This document shows, in pieces, positions 7,743-51,719 of a stretch of DNA of 64,000 nucleotides; the first letter of the stretch is position 1; the number at the start of each line of letters is the position of its first letter. The notes under the pieces were generated by a model. It was not told where the DNA came from and searched no databases. It saw nothing but the letters and a program-made list of their open reading frames with translations. A program made the translations under genes and the position numbers. This DNA comes from Candidatus Oxydemutatoraceae bacterium (GTDB lineage: Bacteria > Pseudomonadota > Gammaproteobacteria > Poriferisulfidales > Oxydemutatoraceae), in the NCBI GenBank assembly GCA_965220085.1, contig CBDCOZ010000003.1:928001-992000 (forward strand). The letters are read 5' to 3'.

Positions 7743-7757
7743 GCGCGGGTACGGTTT

Positions 7758-34755: not shown

Positions 34756-35979
34756 ATGAAAGAATTTGACAAGCAAGAGGCAACGGAGATTATCGCCGGG
34801 GGCGAGGGCGACCGAGTGGAGTTCAAGGAAGCCCTGTCCGGCAAATCCAAGAAGAGCATCATGGAAGCCATCTGCGCCTTTGCCAACGACCTGCCCGGGC
34901 ACGATGAGCCGGGGTATGTCTTTGTGGGTGTGCGCGATGACGGCACCCCCGCCGGCATTCAAATCAGCGACGAGACCTTGCTCAGCCTGGCCGACATACG
35001 CAGCAGCGGCAACATCCTCCCCTTGCCCTCCATGACGGTGGAGCGCATCAGTCTGCGGGGTGAGCAGGTGGCGATGGTCACCGTGCAACCGTCGGATTCC
35101 CCGCCGGTGCGTTGCTACGGCAACATAATGATTCGCACCGGCTCGCGTCGCGGTCTGGCCTCGGCTCAGGATGAGCGCATCCTCAATGAAAAGCGCCGCA
35201 GCCGCGATGCCCGCTATGAGCTGCGCCCGGCACCCCGCGCCAGAATGCAAGATCTGAGCATCACCAGATTCAAAGAAGATTATCTGCGCCACGCTTTCTC
35301 CAAAGAGGTGTTGACGGCTAACGAACGCACCGAGGAGGAGCAACTGGCGGCGCTCAAAATGATAGACAGCGCAGATAATCCGGTGCCCACGGTACTGGGC
35401 ATGCTCAGCATTGGCAGAGACCCGCTGGCCTTCCTGCCCTGCGCCTACATTCAGTTCCTCAGGTTTAAGGGCGACGAAATGTCCGACCAAATTTCCCGCC
35501 ACGTGGAAATCAGCGGCCCCTTGCAAACCATAATGGAGCGTCTGGACGGCATTTTTCAGGCCCACAATCATGAGGCGATAGATACGAGCGGCCCGCGGGA
35601 AAAGCGCATAGCGCTTTACCCCTGGGCAGCGCTACAAGAGCTCAGCCGCAACGCTATCATGCACCGCGACTACGAAACCAGCAACGCGCCGATTCGCATA
35701 CATTGGTTCGACGACCGCGCAGAGATTATCAATGCCGGCGGCGCCTACGGCGAGGTGACAGGGCACCTGGGCGAACCGGGATATGCCGATTACCGCAACC
35801 CCGGTCTGGCCACTGTCATGCGCGACATGGGCCTGGTGCAACGCTTTGGCACAGGCATACAGACAGCCCGCAAAGCCCTGCAAGACGGGGGCAATCCGCC
35901 GCTGGAACTATACGGGGATGACTCCATCGTTCGCGCCACCATCCGCCCCAGCCCGAGGTACACATATGGAACCCGCTGA
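34756..35979 (+). CDS. AlbA_2 (Schlafen-like) domain protein with RecG-C/HATPase-like C-terminus
   Basis: [28 protein letters not shown]; [18 protein letters not shown]. Confidence 0.85.
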
Positions 35980-35992: not shown

Positions 35993-36138
35993 CATACGAT
36001 AGGCGCTACAACTCCGACTTTGCGCAATGTTGAGTTGACCGCTCCGCATATGCGCAACGGCGGCATGTCAACATTGGCAGAGGTCATTGAATTTTATAAT
36101 CGCGGAGGCGTGGCGAACGAACTGCTGAGCCCCCTGAT
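35993..36138 (+). pseudogene. Fragment of a second copy of the MauG-like gene
   Basis: Encodes [48 protein letters not shown], matching the protein encoded at ~34119-34130 and ~34353-34481. Confidence 0.85.
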
Positions 36139-36183
36139 GCAGAATGCAGTTCCCGATAGCTGGTGTGCATAATGAGTAGTTAG

Positions 36184-39100
36184 ATGAAACAAGAAAATTT
36201 CACCAGTAGCCATGGCATTCGCGACAATCGCGAGCGTGGCAGTGTCGGTGCGGACTTTCTCCGTAGATACTTGCGAAAGGGGACAGATCTCTCCATCGTC
36301 TCGGCCTACTTCACTATTAACGCCTACGAGTACCTGAAGGATGAATTGGAATCTATAAAGGGCCTACGTTTCCTGTTTGGCGAGCCAAGTTTGGTTGGTG
36401 TGAAGCAAGGTGATCAGGAAACCAAGGCATTTCAGTTAACCGATCAAGGCTTGTCGTTGGCCAATCAGCTGGAACAAAGCAGACTTGCCAAAGCGTGTTC
36501 CATTTGGATTCAGGAAAAGGTGCAGATTCGCTCCATGCAACAGGGAGATTTTCTGCACGGCAAGATGTACCACCTACAAAACGACGGAGCATCCAGTGCT
36601 CTGTTGGGCAGTTCTAATTTCACAGCGGCCGGCCTCGGCAGGTATGGTGGTAATGTGGAACTCAACTTAATTGTGGACAGCGACCGAGATCGTCAGGAGC
36701 TATTAAGCTGGTTTGAGCAGTGGTGGGAGGATGACGAGCGCACCGAGGATGTCAAGGAGCATGTGTTACGAGAATTAAAGCGACTCTACGATAATCACCC
36801 GCCTCAATTCATCTACTACCTGACCCTCTTTCACTTGTTCCGTGATGATGCCGAAGATGATGATAGCCAGCGTGATCAGATGGAAGGCCTCAAGCTACCT
36901 GATACGCAAATCTGGGAAAAGCTTTATCAGTTCCAGAAGGACGGAGCCAAGAGTGCTATCAATAAACTACTCAGACTGAACGGTTGCATACTGGCTGACA
37001 GCGTGGGATTAGGTAAGACCTTTACAGCTCTGGCGGTCATCAAGTACTTTGAGCTCAGGAACGAACGCGTCTTGGTGCTATGCCCCAAAAAACTGCACAG
37101 AAATTGGTCTATCTACCGGCAAGGTAACGATCTCCGTAATATCTTGTCGGAAGATCGCTTTGACTACGACCTGCTGGCGCATACCGATCTCAGCCGCACG
37201 AGCGGGACATCTGATACCGGTATGGATTTAGCCAATGTTAACTGGGGTGGCTATAGCCTCGTAGTGATTGATGAATCACATAATTTCCGCAACAACAGGT
37301 ACGCAGGTGAGGAAGGTAAGCAGACACGCTACGAAAAGCTTATCAAAGACATCATCGGTAGCGGTAGCAAAACTAAGGTTCTGCTACTGTCCGCTACCCC
37401 TGTCAATAATGAACTTTCCGACATCCGTAATCAAATTTCACTAATTGCTGGCGGTGATGTCAGCAGAGTACCTGAGGCCGATGCCGCCTTTGCCGCCTCT
37501 CAGACTTCCCTAGGTATCCCATCAGTCAAAGAGACTACTCGCATTGCTCAAAAGTACTTTACTGACTGGGCTAGAGCAGCTGAGACGAGTGAGCGGACCA
37601 CTAGTAGCCTGCTGGAAGTTCTCGGCGGTGATTTTTTTCATATGCTAGATGGTCTGCTTATCGCTCGCTCCCGAAGTAATATCAAGTACGCCTACGCAGA
37701 AGAAATGGGTAAGCTAGGTGGATTCCCAAATCGACCTACCCCGCAATCTATCTACTCACCCTTGGATTTGCTAGATGGTTGCCCATCCTTTGAAGAGATA
37801 GAGGGTAAAATCAGTCAACTTAGCTTAGCTTTGTATAACCCTACCGAATTTTTGAGGGAAGATTTAGACGAGGATACGCGGCTTTCCTATGAAGCTAAAA
37901 TCCACGGTGTCTTTACTCAGATGGGGCGTGAACGGATTCTGGTGGGCATGATGAAGACTAATTTTCTGAAGCGTCTAGAGAGTTCAGTGGATTCCTTCCG
38001 CCATACTCTGGAACGCACCATTGACAAAGCCAATGCTTTGCTAGATAAGCTGAATAGCTTTGCCGCGCGAGATACCAATACCGAGTTAAATGATAGTGAT
38101 GTCAATCCTGATGCTCTGGATGAAGAAGACGAGGAGCTGGTGGTTGGGAAGAAACGCAAAGTTTACTTAGGCCACATCGATATTGCCAGATGGAGAGAGT
38201 GCATTGAGAATGACCAGTGCCTTTTGAAAGGATTGCTAAATAAGACTCGCATAGTGAACCCCGAACGCGATGCCAAGCTGGCACAGCTATGTAAACTCAT
38301 CCAAGACAAGCTGCACAGTCCCAATGTCACCAAGGATGGGCGTGAGAACCGCAAGGTGTTAGTCTTCACCGCCTATGCTGACACTGCCTCGTATCTTTAT
38401 GAGAATCTAGAGAGTGCGGTGCGGTCGGAAGGTTGTCACATTGCTCTAGTACGGGGTGATGGTAACAACCGCAACACTTTGGGCGGTAACGAATTTGGGG
38501 AAATATTGGATTATTTTAGCCCACGATCTAGGATGCCTGAAAGAGAACCCGAAGATGAGGAGATTGACGTACTGATTGCCACCGACTGTATCTCTGAGGG
38601 GCAGAACCTGCAGGACTGCGACATAGTGGTCAATTACGACATTCACTGGAATCCAGTGCGCATTATCCAGCGCTTCGGGCGTATTGATCGCATAGGATCG
38701 AAGAATAGCGAGGTACACCTAGTGAACTTTTGGCCTGTGGAAGATCTGGATAACTATCTTAATCTGAAACACAGGGTGCAAGCTCGTATGGCGCTCGTGG
38801 ACGCAACCGCCACACAATCTGATAACTTGCTCACACAAGAAGGGTTGGAAGAACTGGTCACTAAAGATATACAACTCCAGAATCAACAATTGCATCGTTT
38901 GCAGGAGGAAGTTTTGGATTTGGAAGAGTTGGATGAGGCAGGTATTAACCTCAGTGATTTCTCATTGGAAGAGTTCCGTAACGAGCTCATGCAGTTTCTC
39001 AAAGCTGATCGCCAAGCACTAGAGTCTGCCCCCCTAGGCTTGTACACTGTGGTACAAGCCGACCCCGACATCCCAGCACGACCAGGTGCCGTGTTCTGCC

Positions 39101-39525
39101 TGCGCCAGAGAGAGCGGGAGGGAAGTGAGATGGCATCTAACGAGAGTGGCATCAACCCATTGGGCAGACACTACTTAGTTTATGTACACGACGATGGGGA
39201 GGTACGCCTTACTTTTACTTACCCCAAACAAATTCTGGACTTGTTGCGCCGTATAGCCGCAGGGCATGAGCAGGCATTGGCAGAGTTGTGCGATTTGTTT
39301 GACCGGAATACCGAACATGGCATGAACCTGCAACACTACGATGATTTGATAGAGAAAACCTTGCAATCCATCGCGAATGTCTACAGTAGATGTGCTGACA
39401 GAAATTTAGCTTCAGGGCGTGATGGCAGGCTACCTCTTACCTCTTCTCGTCCTACTAGGGATGAGGAAGACTACGAATTGTTAACTTGGTTTGTCATAAT
39501 TGCCCCCGAGGAGACTGTCTCATGA
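36184..39525 (+). CDS. SNF2-family helicase with N-terminal phospholipase D-type nuclease domain
   Basis: FLHGKMY...GSSNFT (PLD); LADSVGLGKT, DESHNFRN, SATP, SEGQNLQ, QRFGRIDR. Confidence 0.92.
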   Translation: MKQENFTSSHGIRDNRERGSVGADFLRRYLRKGTDLSIVSAYFTINAYEYLKDELESIKGLRFLFGEPSLVGVKQGDQETKAFQLTDQGLSLANQLEQSRLAKACSIWIQEKVQIRSMQQGDFLHGKMYHLQNDGASSALLGSSNFTAAGLGRYGGNVELNLIVDSDRDRQELLSWFEQWWEDDERTEDVKEHVLRELKRLYDNHPPQFIYYLTLFHLFRDDAEDDDSQRDQMEGLKLPDTQIWEKLYQFQKDGAKSAINKLLRLNGCILADSVGLGKTFTALAVIKYFELRNERVLVLCPKKLHRNWSIYRQGNDLRNILSEDRFDYDLLAHTDLSRTSGTSDTGMDLANVNWGGYSLVVIDESHNFRNNRYAGEEGKQTRYEKLIKDIIGSGSKTKVLLLSATPVNNELSDIRNQISLIAGGDVSRVPEADAAFAASQTSLGIPSVKETTRIAQKYFTDWARAAETSERTTSSLLEVLGGDFFHMLDGLLIARSRSNIKYAYAEEMGKLGGFPNRPTPQSIYSPLDLLDGCPSFEEIEGKISQLSLALYNPTEFLREDLDEDTRLSYEAKIHGVFTQMGRERILVGMMKTNFLKRLESSVDSFRHTLERTIDKANALLDKLNSFAARDTNTELNDSDVNPDALDEEDEELVVGKKRKVYLGHIDIARWRECIENDQCLLKGLLNKTRIVNPERDAKLAQLCKLIQDKLHSPNVTKDGRENRKVLVFTAYADTASYLYENLESAVRSEGCHIALVRGDGNNRNTLGGNEFGEILDYFSPRSRMPEREPEDEEIDVLIATDCISEGQNLQDCDIVVNYDIHWNPVRIIQRFGRIDRIGSKNSEVHLVNFWPVEDLDNYLNLKHRVQARMALVDATATQSDNLLTQEGLEELVTKDIQLQNQQLHRLQEEVLDLEELDEAGINLSDFSLEEFRNELMQFLKADRQALESAPLGLYTVVQADPDIPARPGAVFCLRQREREGSEMASNESGINPLGRHYLVYVHDDGEVRLTFTYPKQILDLLRRIAAGHEQALAELCDLFDRNTEHGMNLQHYDDLIEKTLQSIANVYSRCADRNLASGRDGRLPLTSSRPTRDEEDYELLTWFVIIAPEETVS

Positions 39526-42500
39526 CGAATCTCAGCAAGCAAGAAATTCAAGACATCATCGATTGTCTAGCTGGGGGTAATTTGGCGCAGGAGGCGTATG
39601 CCCTGTTTAAGGCGCTTGGTTACCGCAGTGGTCGCACCGGGAATTCATCTGGCGCTGTTGGTGATTTTTTGACTCACGGTGGCTACAAGCTTACCGGCAC
39701 AGAAAGTGAAGCAACCTTTAAGGAGCAGGCTAAGGCCGTGCATATCCTATTCCAGATTACCGAAGACGAGATTAAGGCTGGGGTTGGTAATATGCTTGGG
39801 GAAGATGTCGACTTTAATTCCGGCAACAACAAGAGCTTTGTCTTCGTGGTCTCCGAGCTGTGTGAAGATTCCTATTCTCGTAGCCAATATGCCGCATTCA
39901 CCCGCGAAATCAACAAGCGCCTCCCCATGCCGGTGGTGGTGCTGTTCCGCACGGCATCAGGGCGCGTCTCGCTGGCATTCGTGCACCGCCGTCCTAGCAA
40001 AGTCAACACTGACCGTGATGTGCTTGGTCATGTGTCTCTGGTGCGTGAAGTCAATACACAGGCTCCCCACCGCGCTCACTTACAAACATTGCAAGACCTG
40101 TGCCTGCACAGGCGGCTGGAGTGGATACGCGATCACAGCCGCGATGAGAATTTTGACGGGCTACTGGATGCTTGGCTCGTAGCACTGGACACCCAAGAAC
40201 TCAACAAGCAGTTCTACAAAGAGCTGTTCGACTGGTTTAAGCGCGCAGTTGCAGAGGCAAGCTTCCCAGAGAGTGCTGGTTTGAAGCCCGAAGAGCAGAT
40301 TATCCGTCTCATTACCCGCCTGCTATTCATCTGGTTTATCAAAGAGAAAGGCTTGGTGGCCGATGAACTGTTTGTGGAAGAGCAGGTTGGGGGCCTGTTG
40401 AAGGACTATGATCGGGACAGCGGCGATTCCTATTACCGCGCTGTACTGCAGAATCTGTTCTTTGCCGTCCTCAACACGGAGATTGGGGAGCGCCGCTTCA
40501 GCAAGCAGACAAACGAGACACATCGGGATTTTTCCTGCTACCGCTACCGAAAAGAGATTGTGAAAACGGATCGCTTGCTGGCCATGTTTGACAAAACTCC
40601 CTTCATCAACGGTGGCTTGTTCGATTGCCTTGACGATTTTGAAGGTGTGAAGGAAGGTGGCAAACGAATTGACTACTTCACGGATAATCCTGCCCAGCGT
40701 CGCGGCTATTCCATGCCCAACCACCTGTTTTTTGGCCCCGAGGGACTAATCACGCTGTTTAGTCGCTATCACTTCACTGTAGAGGAGAACACCCCCATCG
40801 AGAGGGAGGTGGCATTGGATCCGGAGCTACTAGGGCGGACTTTCGAGAACCTGCTCGCCGCCTACAACCCAGAGACGAGGGACAAAGCCTCCGAGCGGAA
40901 ACTGACCGGGTCGTTCTACACGCCGCGCGAAGTGGTGGATTACATGGTGGATCAAGCACTATTGGAATCGCTGGCGGCTCTAGTCACTACAGACGAGGCT
41001 AGTTGGTGGCGCGATCGGCTAGGGTATCTGCTGGATTATGCCGATGCCTGTGATGACGCTTGGGAGTTGTTTGATGCCGAGGAGCGTAAACGCATCGTTG
41101 CCGCCGTGGCAAAGGTAAAAATCCTTGACCCGGCGGTAGGTTCCGGGGCATTTCCCATGGGAGTACTCCACAAATTAACGTTAATACTACGTCGCTTGGA
41201 TCCCGACAATAAAAAGTGGCGCAAGGTACAACGCGATCTAGCTACAGAGCGAGCAAGTAAGGCTTTCAAACGAACTGGTAAGGAGCAACGCAAAGAGGCT
41301 CTGCAAGAAATCAACGAACTCTTTGAGAGTTACAGTGGTTCAGATTTTGGTCGCAAGCTGTACCTAATCCAGAACAGCATTTTCGGGGTGGATATACAGC
41401 CAATCGCCTGCCAAATAGCCAAGCTACGCTTCTTTATTTCGCTAGCCATAGAGCAGAGACCAAATAAGAACAAGCAATCAAACTATGGTATCCGGCCACT
41501 ACCCAACTTGGAAACCCGCTTTATTGCGGCTGATTCGCTCATAAATATACTGATTCCTTCTCAGCTAACGATGGTGTCAGATGAAAAAGAAAATATAAAG
41601 CAAGAAATTAAAGATAATCGCGAGTGTTATTTTCATGCCGCCACACGCTCGGATAAAAAGGCGATGATTGAAAAGGATAAAGATCTGCGCATTAAATTAG
41701 CAGACCTACTGTGGCAAGAGTGGGGGCAAGGAGATGCCGGCGAGATTGATGGGGCGAATTTGTGGCGGAATAAAAACAAAGAACATAAAAAGGAAAAGGA
41801 ATATACCGATAAGATAGCTCAATGGGACCCTTACGATCAGAATAGTTATGCAGGTTGGTTTAATTCCGAATACATGTTTGACATTACCGAGGGCTTTGAC
41901 ATCGTCATCGGCAATCCGCCGTACATTCAACTCCAGAAGATAGACAGCAAGATGAAGAAGCTCTACATGGCAGAAGGGTATAAAGTATGTGTGGGCAATG
42001 GGGATATTTATACCCTGTTTTATGAGCGCGGCCTGCAACTGTTGAAAGATGGGGCGCACCTGTGCTTTATCACATCTAATAAATGGATGTGCGCCGGATA
42101 CGGCAAAAAGTTGCGCGAATTGTTCTCCCAGAAATGCCCCAAAAACCTTATCGATTTCAGCGGCTTTCGGGTCTTTGACAGTGCGACCGTGGACACCAAC
42201 ATTATTCTGATAGCCAAAGCCAATATGCCCGCCGATGGCAAGTTGCAGGCCACTTCCATGCGCGATGACTTCAGTCCTGAGAACAGCATACATAAGTATG
42301 TGGAGGACAACAAAATTGACATTAAAGCAGAGAATCTGAAGATGGCGGAGGCACCGTGGATTATCTGCACACCCGCAGAATTTGCCTTGAAAGAAAAGAT
42401 TGAAAGGATAGGTGTGCCCTTGAAAGAGTGGGATATTTCCATTAACTACGGAATAAAGACTGGTTGTAACGATGCGTTTATCATTGATAACGAAACTAGG

Positions 42501-43172
42501 GAAGCCTTACTAGCAGAGGATTCTAAATCCGGAGAGATTCTAAAACCGCTCCTGCGGGGCCGTGACATCAAGCGCTATAGGGCTAAACGGGCTGAGAAGT
42601 GGCTGATTACCACGCATAATGGCTATGGAGATGTGCCACCTATTGATATCGGTGACTACCCAGCTGTGAAAAGACATCTGGATCGGTTCCATTCGCGAAT
42701 AGTGGCACGAGAAGATCAGGGTACCACCCCATATAACCTTCGCCATTGCGCGTACTACCCCGAGTTTATGCGCGATAAGATTGTTTGGAGTGATATTTCC
42801 ACTAAACCAGCATTCACGATGATGAAAGCAGGGGTATATCTCTTGAATACAGCGTATATGATTACTACAGACAAGCCATACCTTCTTGCTTTCTTAAATT
42901 CCAAATTAGCAGGATACTATATGTCCCTGACAGCAACTGGCTTAGGTGGGCATGGGGTCAGATACTTTAAACAATTTGTGGAGAAGGTTCCTGTCCCAAA
43001 GATAAGTGATGATAAGCATAAATCCTTCGCAAACATAGCAGACAGGATTCTGAATTCCGAAAATCAACCAGCCCACGTCACCAAATTAGAGCGGGATATT
43101 GACCATTTAGTCTATGCGCTCTATGACTTCACTGATGCAGAGATTCAGATGATTGAGAGCTACCAATCATAG
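39522..43172 (+). CDS. Type IIG / Eco57I-like N6-adenine DNA methyltransferase with C-terminal TaqI-C-like target recognition region
   Basis: GSFYTP, ILDPAVGSGAF (motif I), IGNPPY (motif IV); ATGA overlap with helicase stop. Confidence 0.9.
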   Translation: MTNLSKQEIQDIIDCLAGGNLAQEAYALFKALGYRSGRTGNSSGAVGDFLTHGGYKLTGTESEATFKEQAKAVHILFQITEDEIKAGVGNMLGEDVDFNSGNNKSFVFVVSELCEDSYSRSQYAAFTREINKRLPMPVVVLFRTASGRVSLAFVHRRPSKVNTDRDVLGHVSLVREVNTQAPHRAHLQTLQDLCLHRRLEWIRDHSRDENFDGLLDAWLVALDTQELNKQFYKELFDWFKRAVAEASFPESAGLKPEEQIIRLITRLLFIWFIKEKGLVADELFVEEQVGGLLKDYDRDSGDSYYRAVLQNLFFAVLNTEIGERRFSKQTNETHRDFSCYRYRKEIVKTDRLLAMFDKTPFINGGLFDCLDDFEGVKEGGKRIDYFTDNPAQRRGYSMPNHLFFGPEGLITLFSRYHFTVEENTPIEREVALDPELLGRTFENLLAAYNPETRDKASERKLTGSFYTPREVVDYMVDQALLESLAALVTTDEASWWRDRLGYLLDYADACDDAWELFDAEERKRIVAAVAKVKILDPAVGSGAFPMGVLHKLTLILRRLDPDNKKWRKVQRDLATERASKAFKRTGKEQRKEALQEINELFESYSGSDFGRKLYLIQNSIFGVDIQPIACQIAKLRFFISLAIEQRPNKNKQSNYGIRPLPNLETRFIAADSLINILIPSQLTMVSDEKENIKQEIKDNRECYFHAATRSDKKAMIEKDKDLRIKLADLLWQEWGQGDAGEIDGANLWRNKNKEHKKEKEYTDKIAQWDPYDQNSYAGWFNSEYMFDITEGFDIVIGNPPYIQLQKIDSKMKKLYMAEGYKVCVGNGDIYTLFYERGLQLLKDGAHLCFITSNKWMCAGYGKKLRELFSQKCPKNLIDFSGFRVFDSATVDTNIILIAKANMPADGKLQATSMRDDFSPENSIHKYVEDNKIDIKAENLKMAEAPWIICTPAEFALKEKIERIGVPLKEWDISINYGIKTGCNDAFIIDNETREALLAEDSKSGEILKPLLRGRDIKRYRAKRAEKWLITTHNGYGDVPPIDIGDYPAVKRHLDRFHSRIVAREDQGTTPYNLRHCAYYPEFMRDKIVWSDISTKPAFTMMKAGVYLLNTAYMITTDKPYLLAFLNSKLAGYYMSLTATGLGGHGVRYFKQFVEKVPVPKISDDKHKSFANIADRILNSENQPAHVTKLERDIDHLVYALYDFTDAEIQMIESYQS
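42437..42583 (+). repeat. Left arm of 147-bp imperfect inverted repeat inside the methyltransferase gene
   Basis: Reverse complement of 43803-43949; about 17 mismatches by hand count; perfect blocks of 21, 26 and 27 bp. Confidence 0.93.
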
Positions 43173-43174
43173 AG

Positions 43175-43957
43175 CTAACGCCGCTCTTCAATTATCGCTA
43201 TCTCAGCTTTTGTTAGACTAAATAGCGTATATGCCAGATTATCTACTTGCTCTTCTAACTTATTCGTGTTCTCGCGCCTCGCTTTCGCTACGCTGATTTT
43301 TTGCAACAGCTCTACAAAAGGTTGCTGCTCGTTTTGCGGTATTCTGGGAATTGTGATGTTCTCTGCAAAAAGTTTCTGCATCAAATACCCCTTGCTATCC
43401 CGTGAATAGACATACAATGGTATCAAAAATCGAACAATCTTCGAGTTTAACATGGTGCACAGATAAGGCAGGTGTTGCCCTGTGATAATGAAGGCAGTCT
43501 TATCTGTTACAAGTTCGTTGCCAAAATCCATAAAGAATCTGGGGAATTCATCAGGCATACCCTTAGCCTCCCTCATCGTTTCAGGATACACAATCTTATC
43601 GCGCATAAACTCGGCGTGGTATGCAATGCTATCTTGAGTCTCATACCATTTGTAGCCAGTTGCCTTTCGGCTACCAGGCGCACCAGTCTGCTGCAGTCGA
43701 TGCTTGCCAAATGAAAGCAGGTGACGCTTTACAGCCTGATAATCATCAATGTCCAATTCTAGTGCAGGCAATGTGGCAATCAACCACAGTTCGGCCCATT
43801 CCGCCCTGTAGCGTTTTATGTCGCGGCCTCGCAGTATCGGCTTCAGAATCTCCTCGGATTTAGGATCCTCTGCTAGTAAGGCTTCCCTAGTCTCGTTATC
43901 AATGATAAACGCATCGTTGCAGCCCGTTTTTATTCCGTAGTTAATGGAATTGTTCAA
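43175..43957 (-). CDS. Alternative, inverted C-terminal specificity (TRD) cassette of the methyltransferase
   Basis: Begins SINYGIKTGCNDAFIIDNETREALLAED, identical to the residues encoded from 42438, then diverges; no MTase motifs; tail-to-tail with the MTase gene. Confidence 0.85.
   Translation of the reverse strand: MNNSINYGIKTGCNDAFIIDNETREALLAEDPKSEEILKPILRGRDIKRYRAEWAELWLIATLPALELDIDDYQAVKRHLLSFGKHRLQQTGAPGSRKATGYKWYETQDSIAYHAEFMRDKIVYPETMREAKGMPDEFPRFFMDFGNELVTDKTAFIITGQHLPYLCTMLNSKIVRFLIPLYVYSRDSKGYLMQKLFAENITIPRIPQNEQQPFVELLQKISVAKARRENTNKLEEQVDNLAYTLFSLTKAEIAIIEERR
43803..43949 (-). repeat. Right arm of 147-bp inverted repeat
   Basis: Matches 42437-42583 on the opposite strand. Confidence 0.93.
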
Positions 43958-44016
43958 TCCTTAACCTCTTTGTTTCTGTTATAAGAGGATTTTCATTTAA
44001 CTGGGAGACCATATCC

Positions 44017-44982
44017 ATGAAATCAATAATTCAACACTCAATCACAGATATTCGCCGAGATATTGTTACTGGTGCTTTGGCTCAAAACACTATCCGCACA
44101 TATAAAAAGGCATGGGACGATTTTTCTGCCTATTGTAAAAGTCGGCGAATTAAGCCACTTGCAGCGACACCAGACACAGTGGCAGAGTTTCTGATAGAGA
44201 GTGCTACTAAACCATCACTTGCTACTGGCCGGCCATTGTCGGTCGGGTCTCTATCAATCCTTAATTGTGCGATTGCAAAACACTTCTGGTTGCATGAGAG
44301 ACAATCACCCACCAACCACCCAAAGGTAGTGACCGCTATGCGAGGACTGGCGCGTATCAACGGTAAGCCGCCCAGACAGGTCAAGGCATTGCGCGAGAAG
44401 CACATAGTCGAAATGATAAAGCAGTGCGATACCGGCACGTTAATAGGGACGCGCGATGCGGCGCTACTGGCGGTGGGTTTCTCTGCTGCGTTGCGTCGTA
44501 GTGAACTTTGTGCATTGCAAGTCGACGACATTGAGGTGATAGATGACGAGGGCGGATTACGTATGATGCTGACCATCCGCAAATCTAAAACCGACCAAGC
44601 TGGACTAGGCCAAGCTATACCGGTGCTAGATGGCAAGTTCATAAGGCCTGTCACCCATTTGCTGCAATGGTTGCACGAATCTGGCATCACCGATGGTTAC
44701 ATATTTCGTTCTTTGCGGCGCGGAGGGCATATGAGGGGTGATTGTTTGCACCACAGTGATATCCCGCGCCTAGTAAAACGCTATGCTGCTGCCATTGGTC
44801 TTGACCCTGCACATTACGCAGGCCATAGCCTACGCGCTGGATTTGTCACTAGTGCCGCTGCTCACGGCGCACGCATGGATAAGATTATGGAGGTCACGCG
44901 GCATACTAACACCCAGACCTTGATGAAGTATATCCGCGATGCCAATGTATTCAGTGAACATGCAGGCACTAAATTTCTGTGA
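44017..44982 (+). CDS. Tyrosine recombinase (phage integrase / Cre-like family)
   Basis: RDAALL..GF..ALRRSEL, KSKTDQ, GHSLRAG, TRH, KY: complete R-K-H-R-H-Y set. Confidence 0.93.
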   Translation: MKSIIQHSITDIRRDIVTGALAQNTIRTYKKAWDDFSAYCKSRRIKPLAATPDTVAEFLIESATKPSLATGRPLSVGSLSILNCAIAKHFWLHERQSPTNHPKVVTAMRGLARINGKPPRQVKALREKHIVEMIKQCDTGTLIGTRDAALLAVGFSAALRRSELCALQVDDIEVIDDEGGLRMMLTIRKSKTDQAGLGQAIPVLDGKFIRPVTHLLQWLHESGITDGYIFRSLRRGGHMRGDCLHHSDIPRLVKRYAAAIGLDPAHYAGHSLRAGFVTSAAAHGARMDKIMEVTRHTNTQTLMKYIRDANVFSEHAGTKFL

Positions 44983-45118
44983 ACAATTTGAATAAGGCCA
45001 GCTGTTAAATCTTGGGTAACCACAAAACATAACCAAAGTTGAGGAGGATGAAAGATGAGTGTCGGTTCGTAGTGGTATAGCTGAATACCTCCTACTTAAA
45101 TCCTAATATCAAATTAGT

Positions 45119-45342
45119 TCAATTGTGCAGAATCAGGATTTCGCCTTTGCCGTTTGCGGCACAGTCGCCGACATAGCGGTTTGCCAGCTTTGGCAAGGGC
45201 AAGGGCTCAAAGCCGATGTCAAGCTTTTGCAAGTAGTTTGACAGTAAGGTCAGAAACTCGGTTTCAAAGTATTTATTCTGGTTGATAAAGGTCTGGGGCA
45301 GGCCGCCCTGCGGTAATTGACGCAGGATGATGCTCCCTCTTT
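45119..45342 (-). repeat. Direct-repeat copy of the last 224 bp of fhcC
   Basis: Near-identical to 49987-50210 (about 5 mismatches by hand count), including the stop codon position. Confidence 0.95.
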
Positions 45343-45461
45343 CCAGAGCGGAATTGACAAGGATGAAGTGTAAAAGGTATGCGGCGGATGTTTTTGAAGG
45401 TGGTGAGGAGGCTTTTAATATGCAAAAATCCAAATATGACTTTTGAATATGGATACAGACA

Positions 45462-46664
45462 ATGCTGAAAAGTGAACTTCTGGAATTAATCGACCAAGGG
45501 GAAGGGCCCAAACTGGAATTTGATCGCGATGATGTCCGCCCTGAAAATCTGGCTAAGGAAATAGTGGCTTTCACCAACATGAACGGCGGCCAAATACTTA
45601 TGGGTGTTGAAAATGATGGAGACATCAGCGGCATACGGAGGAATAACCTTCGGGAATGGGTAATGGATACGGTTATTGGTCGCCATGTTCATCCATATAT
45701 TCATCCGGACTATCAAGAAATTTCGCTTGAAGATAAGAAAGTAGCCGTGATTGATATCCCCATGGGGACTGTCAAGCCATACACTCTCAAACACAATGAT
45801 CGCCAAGATGCGTATGTTCGTTATGGGAATATATGTAAGCCGGTAAATCGTGCACAGCAGGCAAGGTTGTATGCATCCGGCGGGTCTTATTCGATTGAAA
45901 GACTTCCCGTTCCGGGTTCAAAGATTAGTGAACTGAGCAAGCCTCGCTATCTCCAATATTTCTCCGATGTTTTGGAAGAAACGATAGACATTGATGAAGA
46001 GTTTCTTGAAAATCGTTATTTCCTCGTAGATTCAAGTGGTGGCCTATCGTGCAGTTATTTCGCATATGCGCTGTTTGCCAAGAGACCTGGTCTGCGGTTG
46101 CCACAGGCGCCGGTTCGCGTAACTGTATATCCCGGCAATGATAAGGATTACGATACTTCATTGGATGAGAGTCCGGATGTGCCCTATGTGGGGTTATGCA
46201 ATGATGAAGGTGCTGTTGTCGAACCCGCCATTCATGAGAGAGTCATGGCGCTGATACAGTCGCATATCAGTAAAGAACAGTTGGTGGATGCCACCCGAAC
46301 ACGGCTGTGGGACTATCCGCCGGAGGCTATCAGGGAGGCCATAGTCAATGCGCTTGTCCATCGCGATTGGACCAAGACGGGCTGTGTGCGCTTGGAGGTG
46401 TATGGCGACCGCTTGGAAATCCATAGCCCCGGTTCTCTGCCCAATGGCATGACTGTCGATGGGGTAAAACATGGGGCGCGATTTGCCCGCAATCAGCAGT
46501 TGGTTCGCGTATTCAATGATTACGGATATATGGAAGGCCGGGGAATGGGTATACGCCGCAAGATTATCCTGCTGAGCTTGAAACATAGTGGCCGTGAGCC
46601 AGACTTTGAGGCAACAGAAGACCACTTCAAAGTGATACTGTATAAGAAAGATGCTCGCACCTGA
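45462..46664 (+). CDS. Second AlbA_2 domain protein with RecG-C/HATPase-like C-terminus
   Basis: GEGPKLEF, EIVAFTN, GGQILMGVENDG; REAIVNALVHRDW, SPGSLP, RN, GMG. Confidence 0.85.
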   Translation: MLKSELLELIDQGEGPKLEFDRDDVRPENLAKEIVAFTNMNGGQILMGVENDGDISGIRRNNLREWVMDTVIGRHVHPYIHPDYQEISLEDKKVAVIDIPMGTVKPYTLKHNDRQDAYVRYGNICKPVNRAQQARLYASGGSYSIERLPVPGSKISELSKPRYLQYFSDVLEETIDIDEEFLENRYFLVDSSGGLSCSYFAYALFAKRPGLRLPQAPVRVTVYPGNDKDYDTSLDESPDVPYVGLCNDEGAVVEPAIHERVMALIQSHISKEQLVDATRTRLWDYPPEAIREAIVNALVHRDWTKTGCVRLEVYGDRLEIHSPGSLPNGMTVDGVKHGARFARNQQLVRVFNDYGYMEGRGMGIRRKIILLSLKHSGREPDFEATEDHFKVILYKKDART

Positions 46665-47001
46665 AACCGAACAACCGATTATCAACTCGCCATACGAGGA
46701 ACCGAAGGCGCACTGGAAGATTCATGCCCATGAACCGGCAGAGAAGGTGGAGGGGCGGCGCATGGCGGCTTATATGTATCTGCCATCCGGCAAGTCCCAT
46801 GATGTGGAGGATGAGCGCAAGACCGGCTACGAACTGGAATTGCAACTGGTGACACTGTTGCGTGAGCGGGTTACCGAGTGGCGGGAGATGGCACGGCGCG
46901 GCGAGGGCGGTGTCAGCAGGGTGACTATGGAACTGCTGAACTACTGGCGCCGCGAAGGGCGGAAGCATCGGTTGTTCTTTGCGCAGTTGGAAGTAGCGTA
47001 G
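46651..47001 (+). pseudogene. Truncated N-terminus of a type III restriction (Res)-like helicase
   Basis: PIINSPYEEP..HW, LRERVTEWR, ELLNYW, RLFFAQLE resemble Res-subunit N-termini; stops after 116 aa, before any helicase motif. Confidence 0.7.
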
Positions 47002-47080
47002 GTGGTTGTATTTCTAGCCTTTCAGGTTTTGTTTCAGTTATGGTATAACAGCCAGTACCCTTACAACTGGAGACCATACC

Positions 47081-47665
47081 ATGAAAATTTTCATATTCTC
47101 ACCCCAATCCATCTATATGGAGATTTGGCAATGCCTTAAGATTCGCCGCTCTGTTTATGTGCAAAACAGAAATCTATATTTCTTGACGATGCTTGTTGTC
47201 GCACTTACAGCATCTACAGACGCATTCGCCGCAAATCTAGACCAGCACATAAACATGGGCCCTACTGAAAGGGAAATCGGCATGATGCTTGATGAACAAG
47301 TTTTCAAGAATGGAATAGAAGTGTTCAATAAGAAGAACTGGTTTCCCCCTGCTAGATGCAAAGCTTATTTAGGTGGTGCAAAAGACCATCCAACACAAGT
47401 ACGTCTATTAACTGATGCCAAAAAGGGCTACATGCCCATAGTAATAAGGTCATATCTGAGATTCCAAGGGGATGGCTGTAGAGGGGTTTTCAGACCCTTT
47501 GTAAAATCTCAGTATGTAGGATTTGCTGTTAAAATTCTCCCTGCCCCTGCCAATAATCCCAAGTGCGGGAAGATGATTGTATTGGAGAAATCAAATATTA
47601 AGAAATTGCCAGGGATAATAGAAACCAATATAGACAAAAAAATGAAATACCAAATATGCAGCTAG
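47081..47665 (+). CDS. Hypothetical AT-rich protein, probably exported (true start may be downstream, near 47159-47188)
   Basis: 194-aa ORF; hydrophobic stretch ending in AFA; four Cys in the predicted mature part. Confidence 0.55.
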   Translation: MKIFIFSPQSIYMEIWQCLKIRRSVYVQNRNLYFLTMLVVALTASTDAFAANLDQHINMGPTEREIGMMLDEQVFKNGIEVFNKKNWFPPARCKAYLGGAKDHPTQVRLLTDAKKGYMPIVIRSYLRFQGDGCRGVFRPFVKSQYVGFAVKILPAPANNPKCGKMIVLEKSNIKKLPGIIETNIDKKMKYQICS

Positions 47666-47916
47666 TCTACTGGTAACAATTAATATAGCTCTGTATACTG
47701 GCTATTGCAGAGTGCGACTATGATGCTTATATTCAAGTCAAACAGGGATAATAAGCATTACTTAGTCTGGGTGGCGCATTAAGGTGCCGCCCGACGCTGG
47801 GTCAATGCGGTGAACGTCGACGGCAAGCATGGTCATTGGCAATATTGCATGGTGTCAGAAAGCGAGAAGGCCGTTGATGCGGTGGATGATGCCGTCAAAG
47901 CCGCGAGCCGCACATA

Positions 47917-48127
47917 GCCTATGCGCACTATCGGCTCCGAACACGGCGCTGTTTATCGATGCCAAGCTCCATAACACAGGGCCGGGGCACGAAGTATCCG
48001 TCAGAAAAGAGGCACTGACCGAGAGGGTCCGGCCTTCCAAGGCCTTTGTTGGGGCCAAGCATGAGTTTATAAAAGAGGTATCGCGCATCGGCAATAGCCT
48101 GAATGATTTGGGTGCGTATAATGTAAC
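47917..48127 (+). pseudogene. Decayed fragment of the MauG-like gene
   Basis: ALFIDAKLHNTG..E.S..KE..TERV...EFIKEVSRIG...NDLGAY.VT matches the protein encoded at ~34113-34324. Confidence 0.82.
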
Positions 48128-48207
48128 AAGAAAATGGGTGGCAGGTGGCCACTGGGCTGCACATAGGATAAAGATACCTCATTCCACACATATATAAACT
48201 GACTACG

Positions 48208-49383
48208 ATGAAAATTGAACGTATAGAGATTAATAATTTCCGCGCGCTACATAGTGTGGTTCTGAAAGATATTCCCAGCTTAGCTGTTTTTATTGGCAAA
48301 AACGGCAGCGGCAAGTCCACTTTGTTTCAAGTATTTGGTTTCTTAAAAGATGCACTGCAGAATAATGTACAAACAGCTTTGCAAAGAATGGGCGGATACC
48401 ATGAGGTGGCGACGCGAGGTCATTCGGATGAGCCAATCAGCATAGAAATAAAGTTCAGGATGAAGATTGCCGAGAAAGAACGACTGGTCACATACCGCGT
48501 TGAGATTGCCCGCAGAGACGACCGGCCTTTCGTCCGCCGCGAGATACTGCGTTACAAGAGAGGGTCTTTCGGTTCTCCGTTTCATTTTCTGGATTTTAGC
48601 AATGGCAACGGCTACGCGATTAACAATGAGGAGGATTTCAATAAACCGGACATAGAACTGGAGAAAGAGCATCAGAAGTTGCCCGACAATGTTCTGGCCA
48701 TCAAGGGCTTGGGGCAGTTTGAAAGGTTTAAGGCGGCCAGCGCTTTTCGCCATCTGATAGAGAACTGGCATGTCTCCGATTTCCATATAGCCGCCGCACG
48801 GCAGCGCGCAGAAGCCGGTGTGGCCGAGCATCTGTCTCCGACAGGAGACAACCTGCCGCTGGTCGCCCAATATTTGCAGAAGGGGAATCCGGAGGTGTTC
48901 CGGAAGATATTGGATAGGTTCCAAGAGCGGATTCCGGGCATGGGGAAGGTCACCGCGGATGTTACTCAGGATGGGCATGTGCTGCTGCGATTTAGCGATG
49001 CTTCTTTCAAAGATCCTTTCATTGCGCGATTTGTATCTGACGGAACCATTAAGATGTTTGCCTATCTGGTTTTGTTGCATGATCCCGAGCCTCACCCCTT
49101 TTTATGTATTGAGGAACCGGAAAACCAGCTTTACCCGGATCTTTTTGAAGCATTGATGGAGGAGTTGCGCGAATACGGCAGACTGGGAGGACAGGTATTT
49201 GTGTCCACGCATTCGCCGGACATCATGGATTATGCGGAGATTGAGGAAGCATTTCAGTTGGAAAAGAACTCCGGCAAAACTCAGATAAAAGCAATAAAGA
49301 ACAACGAGCAGGTCGCGGCGCTTGTCGAAGGGGGAGACAAACTGGGCTGGCTTTGGAATCAAAATTTGCTGACAGCCGATTAA
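48208..49383 (+). CDS. AAA/ABC-type ATPase (AAA_21/AAA_15-like)
   Basis: GKNGSGKS, SDGT signature, IEEPEN, STHS. Confidence 0.9.
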   Translation: MKIERIEINNFRALHSVVLKDIPSLAVFIGKNGSGKSTLFQVFGFLKDALQNNVQTALQRMGGYHEVATRGHSDEPISIEIKFRMKIAEKERLVTYRVEIARRDDRPFVRREILRYKRGSFGSPFHFLDFSNGNGYAINNEEDFNKPDIELEKEHQKLPDNVLAIKGLGQFERFKAASAFRHLIENWHVSDFHIAAARQRAEAGVAEHLSPTGDNLPLVAQYLQKGNPEVFRKILDRFQERIPGMGKVTADVTQDGHVLLRFSDASFKDPFIARFVSDGTIKMFAYLVLLHDPEPHPFLCIEEPENQLYPDLFEALMEELREYGRLGGQVFVSTHSPDIMDYAEIEEAFQLEKNSGKTQIKAIKNNEQVAALVEGGDKLGWLWNQNLLTAD

Positions 49384-49385
49384 CC

Positions 49386-49985
49386 ATGCCTGAAACCGCA
49401 CATCTGTGTTTGTATGTCATGCTGGAGGAACGTAGCGCCGAGCGCTTGATGAAAGCACTGTTGCCTCATATCCTTCCCGAAGAACTGGCATCCGGCGCCA
49501 TAAGCGCCAAATGCATCCCCCACAGAGGCAGAGGTGATTTGCAAAAGTCTATTCCCAACAAACTGCGTAACTGGCGCACTCCAAACTCCCTTTTTGTGAT
49601 TTTGCACGATCAAGACAATGAGGATTGTCACGGATTAAAAAGAGATTTGCGTTCCCTGTGTGCGGGCAGCCAATGTGAGCATAATCCGCTGATAAGAATC
49701 GTATGCACTGAGTTAGAGTCTTGGTATTTTGGAGATTTGGACGCTGTGGAAGCGGCATACCCCGGATTCAAGGCGGATAGATATCGCAACAAGAGCCAAT
49801 ACAGGGTGCCGGATGCCATTCAAAAGCCGAGTGAGAGGCTTAAGAGCTTAATCAAAGAGTTTGATAAAAGTACGGCTGCCAAGAAAATACCCCGACACAT
49901 GGATATTAACCGTAACCGTTCCGCAAGTTTTATATGTATGGTGGAAGGTATCCGCAATCTGGTGCGCGGAGCAATAGTAGCGTAG
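49386..49985 (+). CDS. DUF4276-like (TOPRIM-related) partner of the ATPase
   Basis: LEERS, LHDQD..DC, ELESWYFGD, NRSASF; 2 bp after the ATPase stop. Confidence 0.75.
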   Translation: MPETAHLCLYVMLEERSAERLMKALLPHILPEELASGAISAKCIPHRGRGDLQKSIPNKLRNWRTPNSLFVILHDQDNEDCHGLKRDLRSLCAGSQCEHNPLIRIVCTELESWYFGDLDAVEAAYPGFKADRYRNKSQYRVPDAIQKPSERLKSLIKEFDKSTAAKKIPRHMDINRNRSASFICMVEGIRNLVRGAIVA

Positions 49986-49986
49986 C

Positions 49987-50799
49987 TTAATTGTGCAAAA
50001 TCAGGATTTCGCCTTTGCCGTTTGCGGCACAGTCGCCGACATAACGGTTTGCCAGCTTTGGCAAGGGCAAGGGTTCAAAGCCGATGTCAAGCTTTTGCAA
50101 GTAGTTTGACAGTAAGGTCAGGAACTCGGTTTCAAAGTATTTATTCTGGTTGATAAAGGTCTGGGGCAGGCCGCCCTGCGGTAATTGACGCAGGATGATG
50201 CTCCCTCTTTTGATTCCTTGTGCGCAAGAATTGCCGCATTGTCCGGAGACGATGACTGTGCCGGCTTTCATCCGTGAAGCGCAGAAAGCTCCCGCATCAC
50301 CGCGTATTGCAATCAGGCCGCGACGCATATGGTCGCCGCTGCGCTCGCCCGCATTGCCCAGCACAAAAATTTCGCCGCCGCGCATTCCTTGTATGGCTCC
50401 TGTTACCGCACCGCCGCAAAAGTCGCCTGCATTGTTGTGCACGATGACGCGCCCGCCGCTCATGGCATGGCCGCAAAAGTTGCCGACATGCCCGCGCACC
50501 CGTATCACTCCTCCGGACAGTTTGGCTGCGGTATAGTGGCCGACATCGCCGGTGACTTGCAACTCGCCTTGGGTCATCGCTGCGCCGACATAATTGAGCT
50601 GCTTACAAGCGCCGGTAATTTCCAACGCTTCTTTTGTGTCCTGTATTACTTCGAACAGATCGCCGACACGGATAGTGTCTCCGGCTGCTTTCAATGTTTG
50701 CCTCTCAATCTCCGAAATGCTCTGCTGCTGACAAAACTCAGGCGTCAGCGGCGACATATCAACACTGTTATCGGGTTTGTTTTTCAGTCTCAATTTCAT
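49987..50799 (-). CDS. fhcC: Formyltransferase/hydrolase complex subunit C (FwdC-like)
   Basis: GXGXG beta-helix repeats (GMRGG, HMRRG); C-terminal GD...GKGEILI; start MKLRLK overlaps the fhcD stop. Confidence 0.92.
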   Translation of the reverse strand: MKLRLKNKPDNSVDMSPLTPEFCQQQSISEIERQTLKAAGDTIRVGDLFEVIQDTKEALEITGACKQLNYVGAAMTQGELQVTGDVGHYTAAKLSGGVIRVRGHVGNFCGHAMSGGRVIVHNNAGDFCGGAVTGAIQGMRGGEIFVLGNAGERSGDHMRRGLIAIRGDAGAFCASRMKAGTVIVSGQCGNSCAQGIKRGSIILRQLPQGGLPQTFINQNKYFETEFLTLLSNYLQKLDIGFEPLPLPKLANRYVGDCAANGKGEILILHN

Positions 50800-51719
50800 G
50801 CGCCCATGATTTCCCACAAATGAAAGTGATAGGGGCCGAGCCGCCCGTCGTAATGGCCGGCGGTAATAGTCGTAATGCCTTGCGCCAGCCCGAGTTCGCA
50901 GACAGCGCTGATGCCGATGCGCATCGCATTGATGATGTCCTGCACGCTCAAGCCGTCGATCACCACCTCCATCGTTGCGGTCGTATCGTCGCGCAAGTTC
51001 GTCGGCACCAACCCCTTGAGTGTCGGGCAATAGGATTCGTGGGTGGATGCGCTAAGCCAGCTATAGCGCGAGCCGACTTTGGAGCCGGAGCGCACGCCGC
51101 CGCCCGGGAAGGGCATAATCAGGTTGGGTAAGCTGGATATCGCATCGATCGCCGCTTCGCAGGCCTGCAATGCCTGCGTCATTGACTTTGCCATAATCAG
51201 AAAGTTGCCGCCGCCGATCGCATTGACCGAGGAAGTGCTTTCTTCGCATAAGAACTCTCCGTCCATAACGGGTATGCGCCAGTATCGTTTGTCTCCGATG
51301 ACCTTTGATATCTGATAGCCGTCCCCGAAGTAGCGTATATATTTACCGAGTGGCAAATCTTTTTCTCCGCCCTCAACGCCCGCAAACACCGCGCTGGTCG
51401 GGCATGTGAGTACACATTGTGCGACGCGTTTGGTCAGTTGCTCCGATAGTGCTTTGGTCGAGATGGCAAACAGCAACACCGAGAAGCCGGTGCGCCCGTC
51501 GGGCGTTTCGGACGGCTTCATTTTGCGCTCGATCCCGGCCTCGACATCACAGCCGATGACCGACGTCGCAAAGCCGACCATCGTATTGGCGGCGTTCTTC
51601 GCCCACTTGTAATTCATCGCCGTGATGATGATTCTGGTGGCGACCATCGGGAACGCCTCGGCAAAGGTGTCTTTTATCTCGACACCGTTTATAACGATGC
51701 CTTTTAGTGGGACTGACAT
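50796..51719 (-). CDS. fhcD: Formylmethanofuran--tetrahydromethanopterin N-formyltransferase
   Basis: DTFAEAF, TSVIGC..EAGIE, TPDGR, GGGNF, SGSKVGS. Confidence 0.95.
   Translation of the reverse strand: MSVPLKGIVINGVEIKDTFAEAFPMVATRIIITAMNYKWAKNAANTMVGFATSVIGCDVEAGIERKMKPSETPDGRTGFSVLLFAISTKALSEQLTKRVAQCVLTCPTSAVFAGVEGGEKDLPLGKYIRYFGDGYQISKVIGDKRYWRIPVMDGEFLCEESTSSVNAIGGGNFLIMAKSMTQALQACEAAIDAISSLPNLIMPFPGGGVRSGSKVGSRYSWLSASTHESYCPTLKGLVPTNLRDDTTATMEVVIDGLSVQDIINAMRIGISAVCELGLAQGITTITAGHYDGRLGPYHFHLWEIMGA

Follow-up and report, generated by a model that had tools for sequence, protein, structure and literature searches.

A candidate four-allele inversion switch in the recognition domain of a helicase-coupled adenine methyltransferase from an uncultured gammaproteobacterium

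INTRODUCTION

Can a DNA methyltransferase (MTase) exchange its own recognition domain by inversion of the end of its gene? This question is raised by a locus in a 64,000-nucleotide (nt) stretch of contig CBDCOZ010000003.1 of Candidatus Oxydemutatoraceae bacterium (the whole stretch is referred to here as the window, and all coordinates are positions within it unless a related locus is named). In this locus the gene of an N6-adenine MTase with a C-terminal recognition domain is followed by a second recognition domain in inverted orientation and by the gene of a tyrosine recombinase. Restriction systems that switch their specificity give rise to mixed populations, which phages escape less easily, and they can reset methylation-dependent gene expression. 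Most knowledge of such switches comes from type I hsdS loci of pathogens.

A sequence-only reading of the window had proposed a recombinase-linked specificity switch with two states in a single-chain type IIG-like enzyme. In our view the locus is, with high probability, a shufflon-type switch that changes specificity by programmed inversion, located in the MTase/recognition subunit of a two-gene system. The idea of a recombinase-linked, invertible recognition domain is well supported by related loci and indirectly by breaks in assembly contigs. The two states have to give way to two nested pairs of repeats and four possible alleles.

RESULTS AND DISCUSSION

Organization of the locus

Four coding regions make up the locus:

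36184 to 39525, plus strand: PLD(HKD)-SNF2 helicase-nuclease, 1113 amino acids (aa), presumed partner for restriction and motor function (Pfam PLDc_2 5.3e-9, SNF2-rel_dom 1.8e-10, Helicase_C 6.7e-15; PADLOC 'HKD+Snf2' C3a139 1.1e-121)
39522 to 43172, plus strand: N6-adenine MTase with a C-terminal TaqI_C-type recognition domain, 1216 aa (Pfam Eco57I 6.3e-40, TaqI_C 1.2e-9; PADLOC REase_MTase_IIG 1.9e-138)
43175 to 43957, minus strand: orphan cassette with an alternative recognition domain, 260-aa frame, first segment of type B (Pfam TaqI_C 2.4e-7)
44017 to 44982, plus strand: Xer-like tyrosine recombinase, 321 aa, the presumed invertase (Pfam Phage_integrase 7.5e-15)

The open frame of the MTase occupies 39486-43172 on the plus strand and reaches back to a TTG at 39486. 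Its start is most likely the ATG at 39522, which overlaps the stop codon of the upstream PLD-SNF2 gene as ATGA, and an NPPY motif is visible in the translation. The C-terminus of the MTase and the orphan cassette are 48% identical, and their stop codons face each other tail to tail, 2 bp apart (43173-43174). This arrangement, like the intact tyrosine recombinase just beyond the cassette (spacing of 59 nt), had been described correctly in the sequence-only reading. A search of the own genome for more cassettes returned just the two known copies, which shows that there is no larger cassette array.

Two pairs of inverted repeats, one nested within the other, connect the two recognition domains:

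42437 to 42613, plus strand: outer inverted repeat, left arm, 177 nt at 85% by blastn, with a 147-nt core at 42437-42583
43773 to 43949, minus strand: outer inverted repeat, right arm, partner of the left arm, 177 nt at 85% by blastn
42750 to 42784, plus strand: inner inverted repeat, left arm, 35 nt at 91%, with an exact 25-nt core at 42760-42784
43590 to 43624, minus strand: inner inverted repeat, right arm, 35 nt at 91%, with an exact 25-nt core at 43590-43614
42785 to 43589, no strand assigned: segment between the inner arms, containing both stop codons and the distal part of each recognition domain; it is spanned by an 855-nt contig (42760-43614), and the homologous segment is inverted between two of the related loci, L041 and L043

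The outer arms had been taken to encode the same peptide in the same frame. The common frame stands, but the arms are not identical: 130 of 147 bases match over the core span (88%), the longest exact run is 27 nt, and within the first 60 aligned codons 17 differences are synonymous and 7 non-synonymous. By repeat search, the pair extends over 42424-42613 / 43773-43962 (190 nt, 83% complementary). Since only 9 of the 37 positions just outside the 147-nt span match, the similarity begins abruptly at TTCCATTAACTACGGAATAAA, as had been noted before. Over aligned codons the outer arms of the window are 86% identical, the median for arms taken from different loci being 70%, which indicates that the repeat exceeds what protein homology alone would give. 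The inner repeat had been overlooked. Both of its arms in the window encode EFMRDKIV, where the consensus of the family is EFxKEKL, and this sharing of a locus-specific peptide indicates homogenisation within the locus.

In both repeat pairs the two arms share the same codon phase. The inversions were carried out in silico, and the MTase frame remained open in every state: 1216 aa in the reference, 1229 aa after inversion at the outer repeat, 1225 aa after inversion at the inner repeat and 1220 aa after both. The 1229-aa product ends in IIEERR, the in-frame fusion that had been predicted for a crossover in the outer repeat. The orphan frame also remained open after each inversion. Two nested, in-phase repeat pairs thus make four full-length in-frame MTase alleles possible. 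Of the features that define gene-altering programmed inversion loci (Milman et al. 2023), the locus displays inverted repeats that overlap a coding sequence (CDS), an oppositely oriented partial paralogue and an adjacent recombinase; coexisting orientations are suggested by the contig breaks described below.

From this organization the following mechanism may be proposed. The system would be an ATP-dependent, restriction-like defence that combines the PLD-SNF2 helicase-nuclease with an MmeI/Eco57I-like N6-adenine MTase. The expressed MTase would end in a two-segment TaqI_C-type recognition domain, and the inverted copy directly behind it would be a promoterless, 5'-truncated alternative of this domain. 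Recombination at the outer repeat pair, at the start of the recognition domain, would swap the whole domain, and recombination at the inner pair, in the middle of the domain, would swap the distal segment only. Both inversions would be catalysed by the adjacent Xer-like tyrosine recombinase. The result would be a mixed population, in which cells methylate, and with the partner protein restrict, different sequences. The alleles are expected to have different methylation motifs, and the predictions that follow are four N6-methyladenine (m6A) motifs and two crossover sites.

Related loci

A profile scan of genome contigs, using an alignment of recombinase homologues, gave 79 loci. By strict criteria (a forward recognition domain, a tail-to-tail partner no more than 400 nt away and a recombinase no more than 500 nt away), the layout was found in 22 of these loci, or in 25 when judged by eye (adding L021, L022 and L050). 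The synteny of MTase, inverted recognition domain and recombinase, for which the sequence-only reading had recommended a search, is therefore recurrent. In eight further loci only the inverted cassette was seen beside the recombinase; these loci have gaps or reach a contig end. Going by their record titles, the full loci represent at least eight higher taxa, with the names Dehalococcoidia/SAR202, Binatia, Thermodesulfobacteriota, Latescibacterota, Caldilineaceae, Arenicellales, Gemmatimonadetes, Nitrospinaceae and 'Multivorans'. Of the 22 strict loci, 13 resemble the window in having, upstream of and adjoining the MTase, a helicase with 41-52% identity to that of the window; the remaining strict loci have a shorter MTase, and a distant helicase is found elsewhere. 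Four loci of relatives with an MTase homologue and no cassette also lack the recombinase, and three of the four show a helicase homologue; a fifth locus of this kind is cut off by the contig end. Homology searching with the cassette leads to the C-termini of full-length MTases: out of 8000 proteins scored, 6738 with lengths of 456-2000 aa reach E<=0.001.

To compare the recognition domains, 41 were taken from the window and the 22 loci (46 were possible; 2 were missed by the motif and 3 of <200 aa were dropped). Three loci, L025, L045 and L094, were excluded from this set as disrupted or atypical. The first segment of the domain, between the two repeats, falls into two sharply distinct types. 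Type A (20 of 41) carries ...THNGY...TPYNLR, type B (19 of 41) carries ...ATFPAL...SRKKT...WFEMQ, and nearly every locus has one domain of each type. Either type may occupy either position: the expressed domain is of type A in 11 loci, of type B in 9 and of another type in 1 (n=21), and the silent domain is of type B in 11, of type A in 8 and of another type in 1 (n=20).

The distal segment assorts independently of the first. Among nearest-neighbour pairs with a distal identity of at least 0.6, the types of the first segment differ in 9 of 35. The expressed domain of L043 (type A) and the silent domain of L041 (type B) are 97% identical in the distal segment versus 36% in the first segment. 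At the nucleotide level these two loci are collinear up to the inner repeat (80%), inverted over the following 910 nt (93.6%) and collinear again into the recombinase gene (86%). As aligned, the difference between them is an inversion between the inner repeats that has become fixed between two related genomes. Exchanged proximal segments were observed in several other pairs of loci. Moreover, when each arm was compared with the 40 other arms, the best nucleotide match was its own partner for 19 of 38 outer arms and 8 of 38 inner arms, and for 0 of 38 and 2 of 38 of the variable segments. Judged by these matches, the repeat arms evolve in concert within loci.

The repeat cores themselves show conservation at synonymous positions. 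In most loci, across phyla, the exact core of the inner repeat has the same nucleotides, (C/T)TGCGCTTACCACG, encoding CAYH (19 loci, alignment columns 145-166); the inner core of the window is displaced downstream relative to this usual position. In many loci, TTCATCATCGATAAC..ACTAAGGA lies within the longest stretch over which the two outer arms match exactly. These cores are candidate recombinase sites.

Identity within the recombinase family is ~50-58% over many phyla, a level suggestive of exchange among members of a single kind of community. A wider proposal is that the whole module is a horizontally exchanged four-state shufflon, common to uncultured bacteria of many phyla, that forms a community-level pool of interchangeable restriction specificities. 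We put this forward tentatively and lean slightly against it. The findings that bear on it are the two-type first segment, which would be ancient, kept across loci while distal segments are swapped freely between them, and the inverted segment of L041 and L043, which is more alike (93.6%) than its flanks (80-86%). If true, restriction specificities would be shared, and the switch would not be private to one genome.

Nearly all of the 79 loci come from uncultured metagenome-assembled genomes, and several record titles carry sponge-symbiont-like names (Spongiihabitans, Poriferihabitaceae, Tethybacter, AqS3). The three loci set aside above have arrangements of their own. L045 (7242-10936) has a tail-to-tail pair of recognition cassettes within an inverted repeat of 572 nt at 99.5%, with a recombinase gene on each side; the two recombinase genes are nearly identical and mirror each other in orientation. 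No MTase N-terminus was detected nearby. In L025 (4742-9912) and L094 (5674-9815) the recognition domain of the MTase starts, breaks for ~2.5-3.5 kb and resumes, with repeats of 112 nt at 100% and 343 nt at 99.7%, respectively; the interruption is either an insertion or a larger multi-cassette arrangement.

Contig breaks and possible inversion in the sampled population

One run only, X1, contains this DNA, in the form of assembly contigs, and it is probably that of the source sample; the Hi-C raw-read run X2 yielded 0 reads for the stretch. Its contigs cover 41900-42784, 42760-43614, 43590-43958 and 43929-45160 (two X1 records fit two places). They break at all four ends of the exact 25-nt inner core, and one contig of 855 nt corresponds exactly to the arm-to-arm segment. 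The X1 assembly is of a type (Logan) that we take to have been built with k=31; in such an assembly a 25-nt repeat cannot break a contig by itself. Repeats of the genome itself also leave the breaks without an explanation, given that no 30-mer at the inner-core breaks, at 41900-41927 or at 43929-43958 occurs twice in the 2.49-Mb genome. The pattern fits a mixture of the two orientations of the inner repeat, and this suggests that both are present in the sampled population. The hint concerns the inner repeat pair and not the 147-bp pair to which the sequence-only reading referred. The contig start at 43929 is, for its part, as expected from a junction at the outer repeat.

The recombinase

The recombinase belongs to the tyrosine recombinases (Xer/integrase superfamily). 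In an alignment of 36 homologues, R146, K191, H270, R273, H296 and Y305 are invariant, and these residues (R-K-H-R-H-Y) are read as the putative catalytic set. Homologues amounted to 2173 proteins at E<=0.001 (among 6010 candidates), and an inverted recognition-domain cassette lies beside the recombinase homologue in 30 of the 79 loci. It is most likely that the Xer-like recombinase of the window catalyses the inversions.

Members of the family also occur in other surroundings. Scanning of 10 large open reading frames (ORFs) beside cassette-less recombinases gave four RTX-repeat proteins, one ResIII protein, one sensor kinase and four without a family. These mixed neighbours indicate that the family is not dedicated to MTase switches. 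In L027, L037, L054 and L076, the homologues adjoin large RTX-repeat (HemolysinCabind) proteins, and no cassette was found there. In L026, L035, L051 and L055 (~6200-9860 in each), they lie beside large nested inverted duplications of 460-930 nt with 84-99% identity; the ORFs at these loci have no Pfam family, and the duplications may be shufflons of an unknown gene family.

Alternative explanations

Several observations weigh against a switch that is active in this genome. Among the X1 records listed, there is no read or contig that carries a recombinant junction. The contigs show other unexplained breaks, at 41900-41927 and 43929-43958. A low-depth (3.5) X1 contig matches the window as far as 41936, immediately behind the NPPY codons, and once more over 42421-42443, after which 11 other letters follow that would encode an IYRGI variant of the domain head known from relatives. 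The sample probably contains another system or strain related to this one. Given these other breaks and the low-depth related sequence, strain or foreign variants could contribute to the contig breaks.

Searches for the alternative allele also gave negative results, each of which is an absence in the collections searched only. A near-identical alternative fusion is not on record, the best full-length protein with the domain of the cassette being 55% identical. The metagenome contigs contain no exact match to the 25-nt inner core and no close relative of the cassette; identities are at most 43% over most of the query and reach 67% only over short N-terminal stretches of 36-56 residues. With regard to the recombinase family, an adjacent cassette is lacking in 49 of the 79 loci, an inverted repeat of at least 35 nt within 5 kb was found for just 12 of 53 recombinases without a cassette neighbour, and the cassette-association label needs 14 changes on the recombinase tree. 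The outer arms of the window (88%) are less homogenised than those of several relatives (up to 98-100%), and outer inversion may be rare or extinct in this genome.

Part of this evidence would also be expected if the inverted cassette were left over from a shufflon, formerly active or inherited, that no longer inverts here and if the recombinase were, now or from the outset, the integrase of a low-GC defence island of ~14 kb, an explanation that we consider unlikely. It would be in line with the divergence of the outer arms to 88% identity and their longest exact run of 27 nt, and with the family members that are not beside a cassette. It would also be in line with a 225-bp direct repeat (97%) that lies 137 nt past the recombinase, is a copy of the 3' end of a GXGXG-motif gene and resembles an island boundary, and with a G+C content (GC) of 0.44-0.53 over 36000-50000 versus 0.55-0.61 in the flanks. 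However, without variant junctions the contig breaks at the four inner-repeat ends have no explanation, and the locus-specific EFMRDKIV shared by the inner arms points to homogenisation. Furthermore, both frames are intact in all four states, and the recombinase is small, Xer-like and located outside the segment bounded by the direct repeat.

Inversion could also proceed by general homologous recombination (RecA) between the repeats, with no need for the neighbouring recombinase. The length of the outer repeat (147-190 nt) and the arms of some relatives (112-343 nt at 99-100%) would suit this route. It is nevertheless quite improbable, because the apparently active inner repeat has just 25 exact nucleotides and because cassette and recombinase occur together, with the recombinase missing from the four cassette-less loci with an MTase homologue. 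In addition, an unrelated serine invertase holds the same position in the Lactococcus plasmid pJM1F discussed below, and in pneumococcal hsdS loci a tyrosine recombinase acts on the repeat pairs (PMC7672463, in the passages available).

It is very unlikely that the orphan cassette yields a protein of its own, serving as a distinct specificity or regulatory subunit instead of a silent donor. Its 260-aa frame is open and has a TTG (43957) with a Shine-Dalgarno-like GAGG upstream, 4 codons ahead of the conserved motif, but 8 of 22 orphans lack any in-frame start codon from the upstream stop to the motif, only 4 of 22 have a Shine-Dalgarno-like start, the cassette homologues are C-termini of full-length MTases, and types A and B trade the fused and orphan positions among loci, all of which weakens this alternative as it had been offered in the sequence-only reading. 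We therefore retain the programmed-inversion switch as the preferred explanation of the locus.

Class of the system

The enzyme had been regarded as a single-chain type IIG-like MTase. As in type IIG/IIL enzymes, MTase and recognition domain are found in one chain (Eco57I and TaqI_C in one 1216-aa frame), but Pfam identifies no nuclease family in it and the PLD(HKD)-SNF2 gene lies upstream with an ATGA overlap. The MTase does not appear to be a self-contained type IIG enzyme and is paired with a separate, presumed PLD-SNF2 helicase-nuclease.

The N-terminal 530 residues of the MTase were modelled with an alignment of 15 homologues (mean pLDDT 73), and Foldseek returned nothing at E<=0.001 with this model. 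Structural alignments were obtained with VIA-align, at Z scores that are middling by the standard of the tool. Residues 183-466 were aligned with the helical domain of MmeI (residues 157-317; 5hr4; Z 8.1, root mean square deviation [rmsd] 3.7, 155 aligned) and also resemble type I M subunits (3khk, Z 8.2), and residues 4-215 were aligned with the first 142 residues of DrdV (7lo5; Z 6.1, rmsd 3.8, 122 aligned). By sequence, the nearest solved relatives are CamA and M.BseCI (~7e-17 over residues 804-1209). The order of N-terminal domain, helical domain, gamma-class MTase and C-terminal recognition domain is the same as in the type IIL-IIG enzymes MmeI and DrdV. The window system differs from these enzymes in its separate PLD-SNF2 partner and in its N-terminal domain, where the conserved columns of the 15 homologues hold no invariant acidic/lysine residues of the PD-(D/E)xK set. 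This combination of domain order and missing residues indicates, on the modelled structure, that the nuclease-like domain of the MTase is probably dead. The PLD-SNF2 neighbour is likely the nuclease and motor of the system, and we infer a restriction role for this protein.

Other assignments were considered and rejected. The NCBIfam model BREX_1_MTaseX scored 81 bits against a cut-off of 500, and the neighbours are PLD-SNF2 and AlbA_2 proteins and not BrxC or PglZ, which does not agree with BREX. In a survey of BREX diversity (PMC12839542), the words 'inversion' and 'recombinase' are absent, and those matched passages that were available do not tie HKD/PLD to an SNF2 helicase. For class 1 DISARM, DISARM_DrmD scored 161 bits against a cut-off of 610, PADLOC DrmMI gave just 2e-22, and no DrmA- or DrmB-like neighbour was found among the 8 flanking proteins scanned. 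MANTIS (Gao_RL) was rejected because it is, as far as its available description goes, a four-gene system with an AAA+ ATPase. Membership in the type I hsdS shufflons was rejected since Pfam scans of the locus genes gave no HsdS, HsdR or HsdM_N family and the region that varies belongs to the C-terminal end of the MTase.

Comparison with known systems

The sequence-only reading had considered a switch in a helicase-coupled system of this kind to be much less described than the hsdS shufflons. This view has to be corrected, since Milman, Yelin and Kishony (Nucleic Acids Research, 2023; PMC9881135) list, in their Table 3, long-read-confirmed programmed inversions in type II restriction-modification (RM) genes 'homologous to Cj0031'. 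In Bacteroides ovatus CP083813.1 a PLD+SNF helicase CDS lies immediately upstream of the type II RM gene, and in CP044495.1 the helicase CDS lies downstream. The same report describes homologues of the B. ovatus locus in three phyla and an enrichment of Eco57I-domain proteins among inversion targets. The B. ovatus loci have the same pairing as the window, a PLD+SNF helicase CDS with a type II RM/MTase CDS, together with inverted repeats that overlap the MTase CDS and variants shown by long reads to coexist. The kind of switch is thus already known, and the window does not open a new category, this type having been in print since 2023.

As against the published description of the B. ovatus loci, the family of the window has a documented tyrosine recombinase conserved across many uncultured lineages, an A/B domain and two nested repeats. 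What the window and its relatives add is the two-repeat, four-allele design, the A/B dimorphism, the exchange of distal segments and the spread of a tyrosine-invertase module in uncultured lineages. The locus is a well-resolved MTase example in a helicase-coupled two-gene system, with four alleles that are each full length, and its design recurs across many uncultured lineages, with tyrosine or serine invertases.

The same division of labour was proposed for orf33/orf34 of the Lactococcus plasmid pLd8 (van Mastrigt et al. 2018; PMC6098607), where a PLD-SNF2 helicase is paired with a type IIG-like MTase without a restriction domain of its own. In the Lactococcus plasmid pJM1F (NZ_CP016750.2), we observed a helicase, an MTase, an inverted TaqI_C orphan of type A 17 nt behind the MTase and then an invertase, with an inverted repeat of 272 nt at 75%. 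The invertase of pJM1F is a serine (Mpi-family) recombinase, in contrast with the tyrosine recombinase of the window, and the two systems are ~32% identical in the MTase core and 26-30% in the helicase. The available passages of PMC6098607 make no mention of inversion in these Lactococcus plasmids.

The pneumococcal SpnIII/cod hsdS shufflon with PsrA/CreX resembles the window in its tyrosine recombinase next to partial specificity genes that are silent and inverted; owing to several pairs of repeats it has several alleles, and every allele has a methylation motif of its own (PMC7672463, as described in the available passages). It differs in that the hsdS shufflon shuffles a separate HsdS subunit with two recognition domains, whereas the window shuffles the TaqI_C-type C-terminus of the MTase itself. 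The BREX type 1 PglX of Lacticaseibacillus rhamnosus, as presented in PMC9881135, is likewise a large Eco57I-type MTase varied by nested inversions beside a recombinase. There, however, the middle part is swapped and the C-terminus kept, which leads to unstable one-inversion intermediates, whereas in the window it is the C-terminus that is swapped, and all states are full length. Furuta et al. (2010; PMC2853133) described allelic diversity among type IIG recognition domains; the available passages of their paper note no inversion of such a domain.

Genomic context

The low-GC stretch around the locus is a horizontally acquired defence island of ~14 kb, located between a cytochrome c peroxidase/SCO1 cluster and the GXGXG-motif gene (49987-51030, minus strand). 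The helicase-MTase-recombinase module is flanked by two Schlafen AlbA_2 + HATPase_c_4 genes (34756-35979 and 45462-46664). A recent duplication of these two genes was considered and rejected, as they are 23% identical.

The direct repeat mentioned above (~225 bp, 97% identical) lies at 45119-45342 and 49987-50210, and its right copy is the 3' end of the GXGXG-motif gene. The two copies bracket a 4.6-kb block that holds the second AlbA_2/HATPase_c_4 gene, small ORFs, a HEC-01-like AAA ATPase (PADLOC 1.8e-181) and a DUF4276 gene. This repeat explains the breaks of the X1 contigs at 45121-45342.

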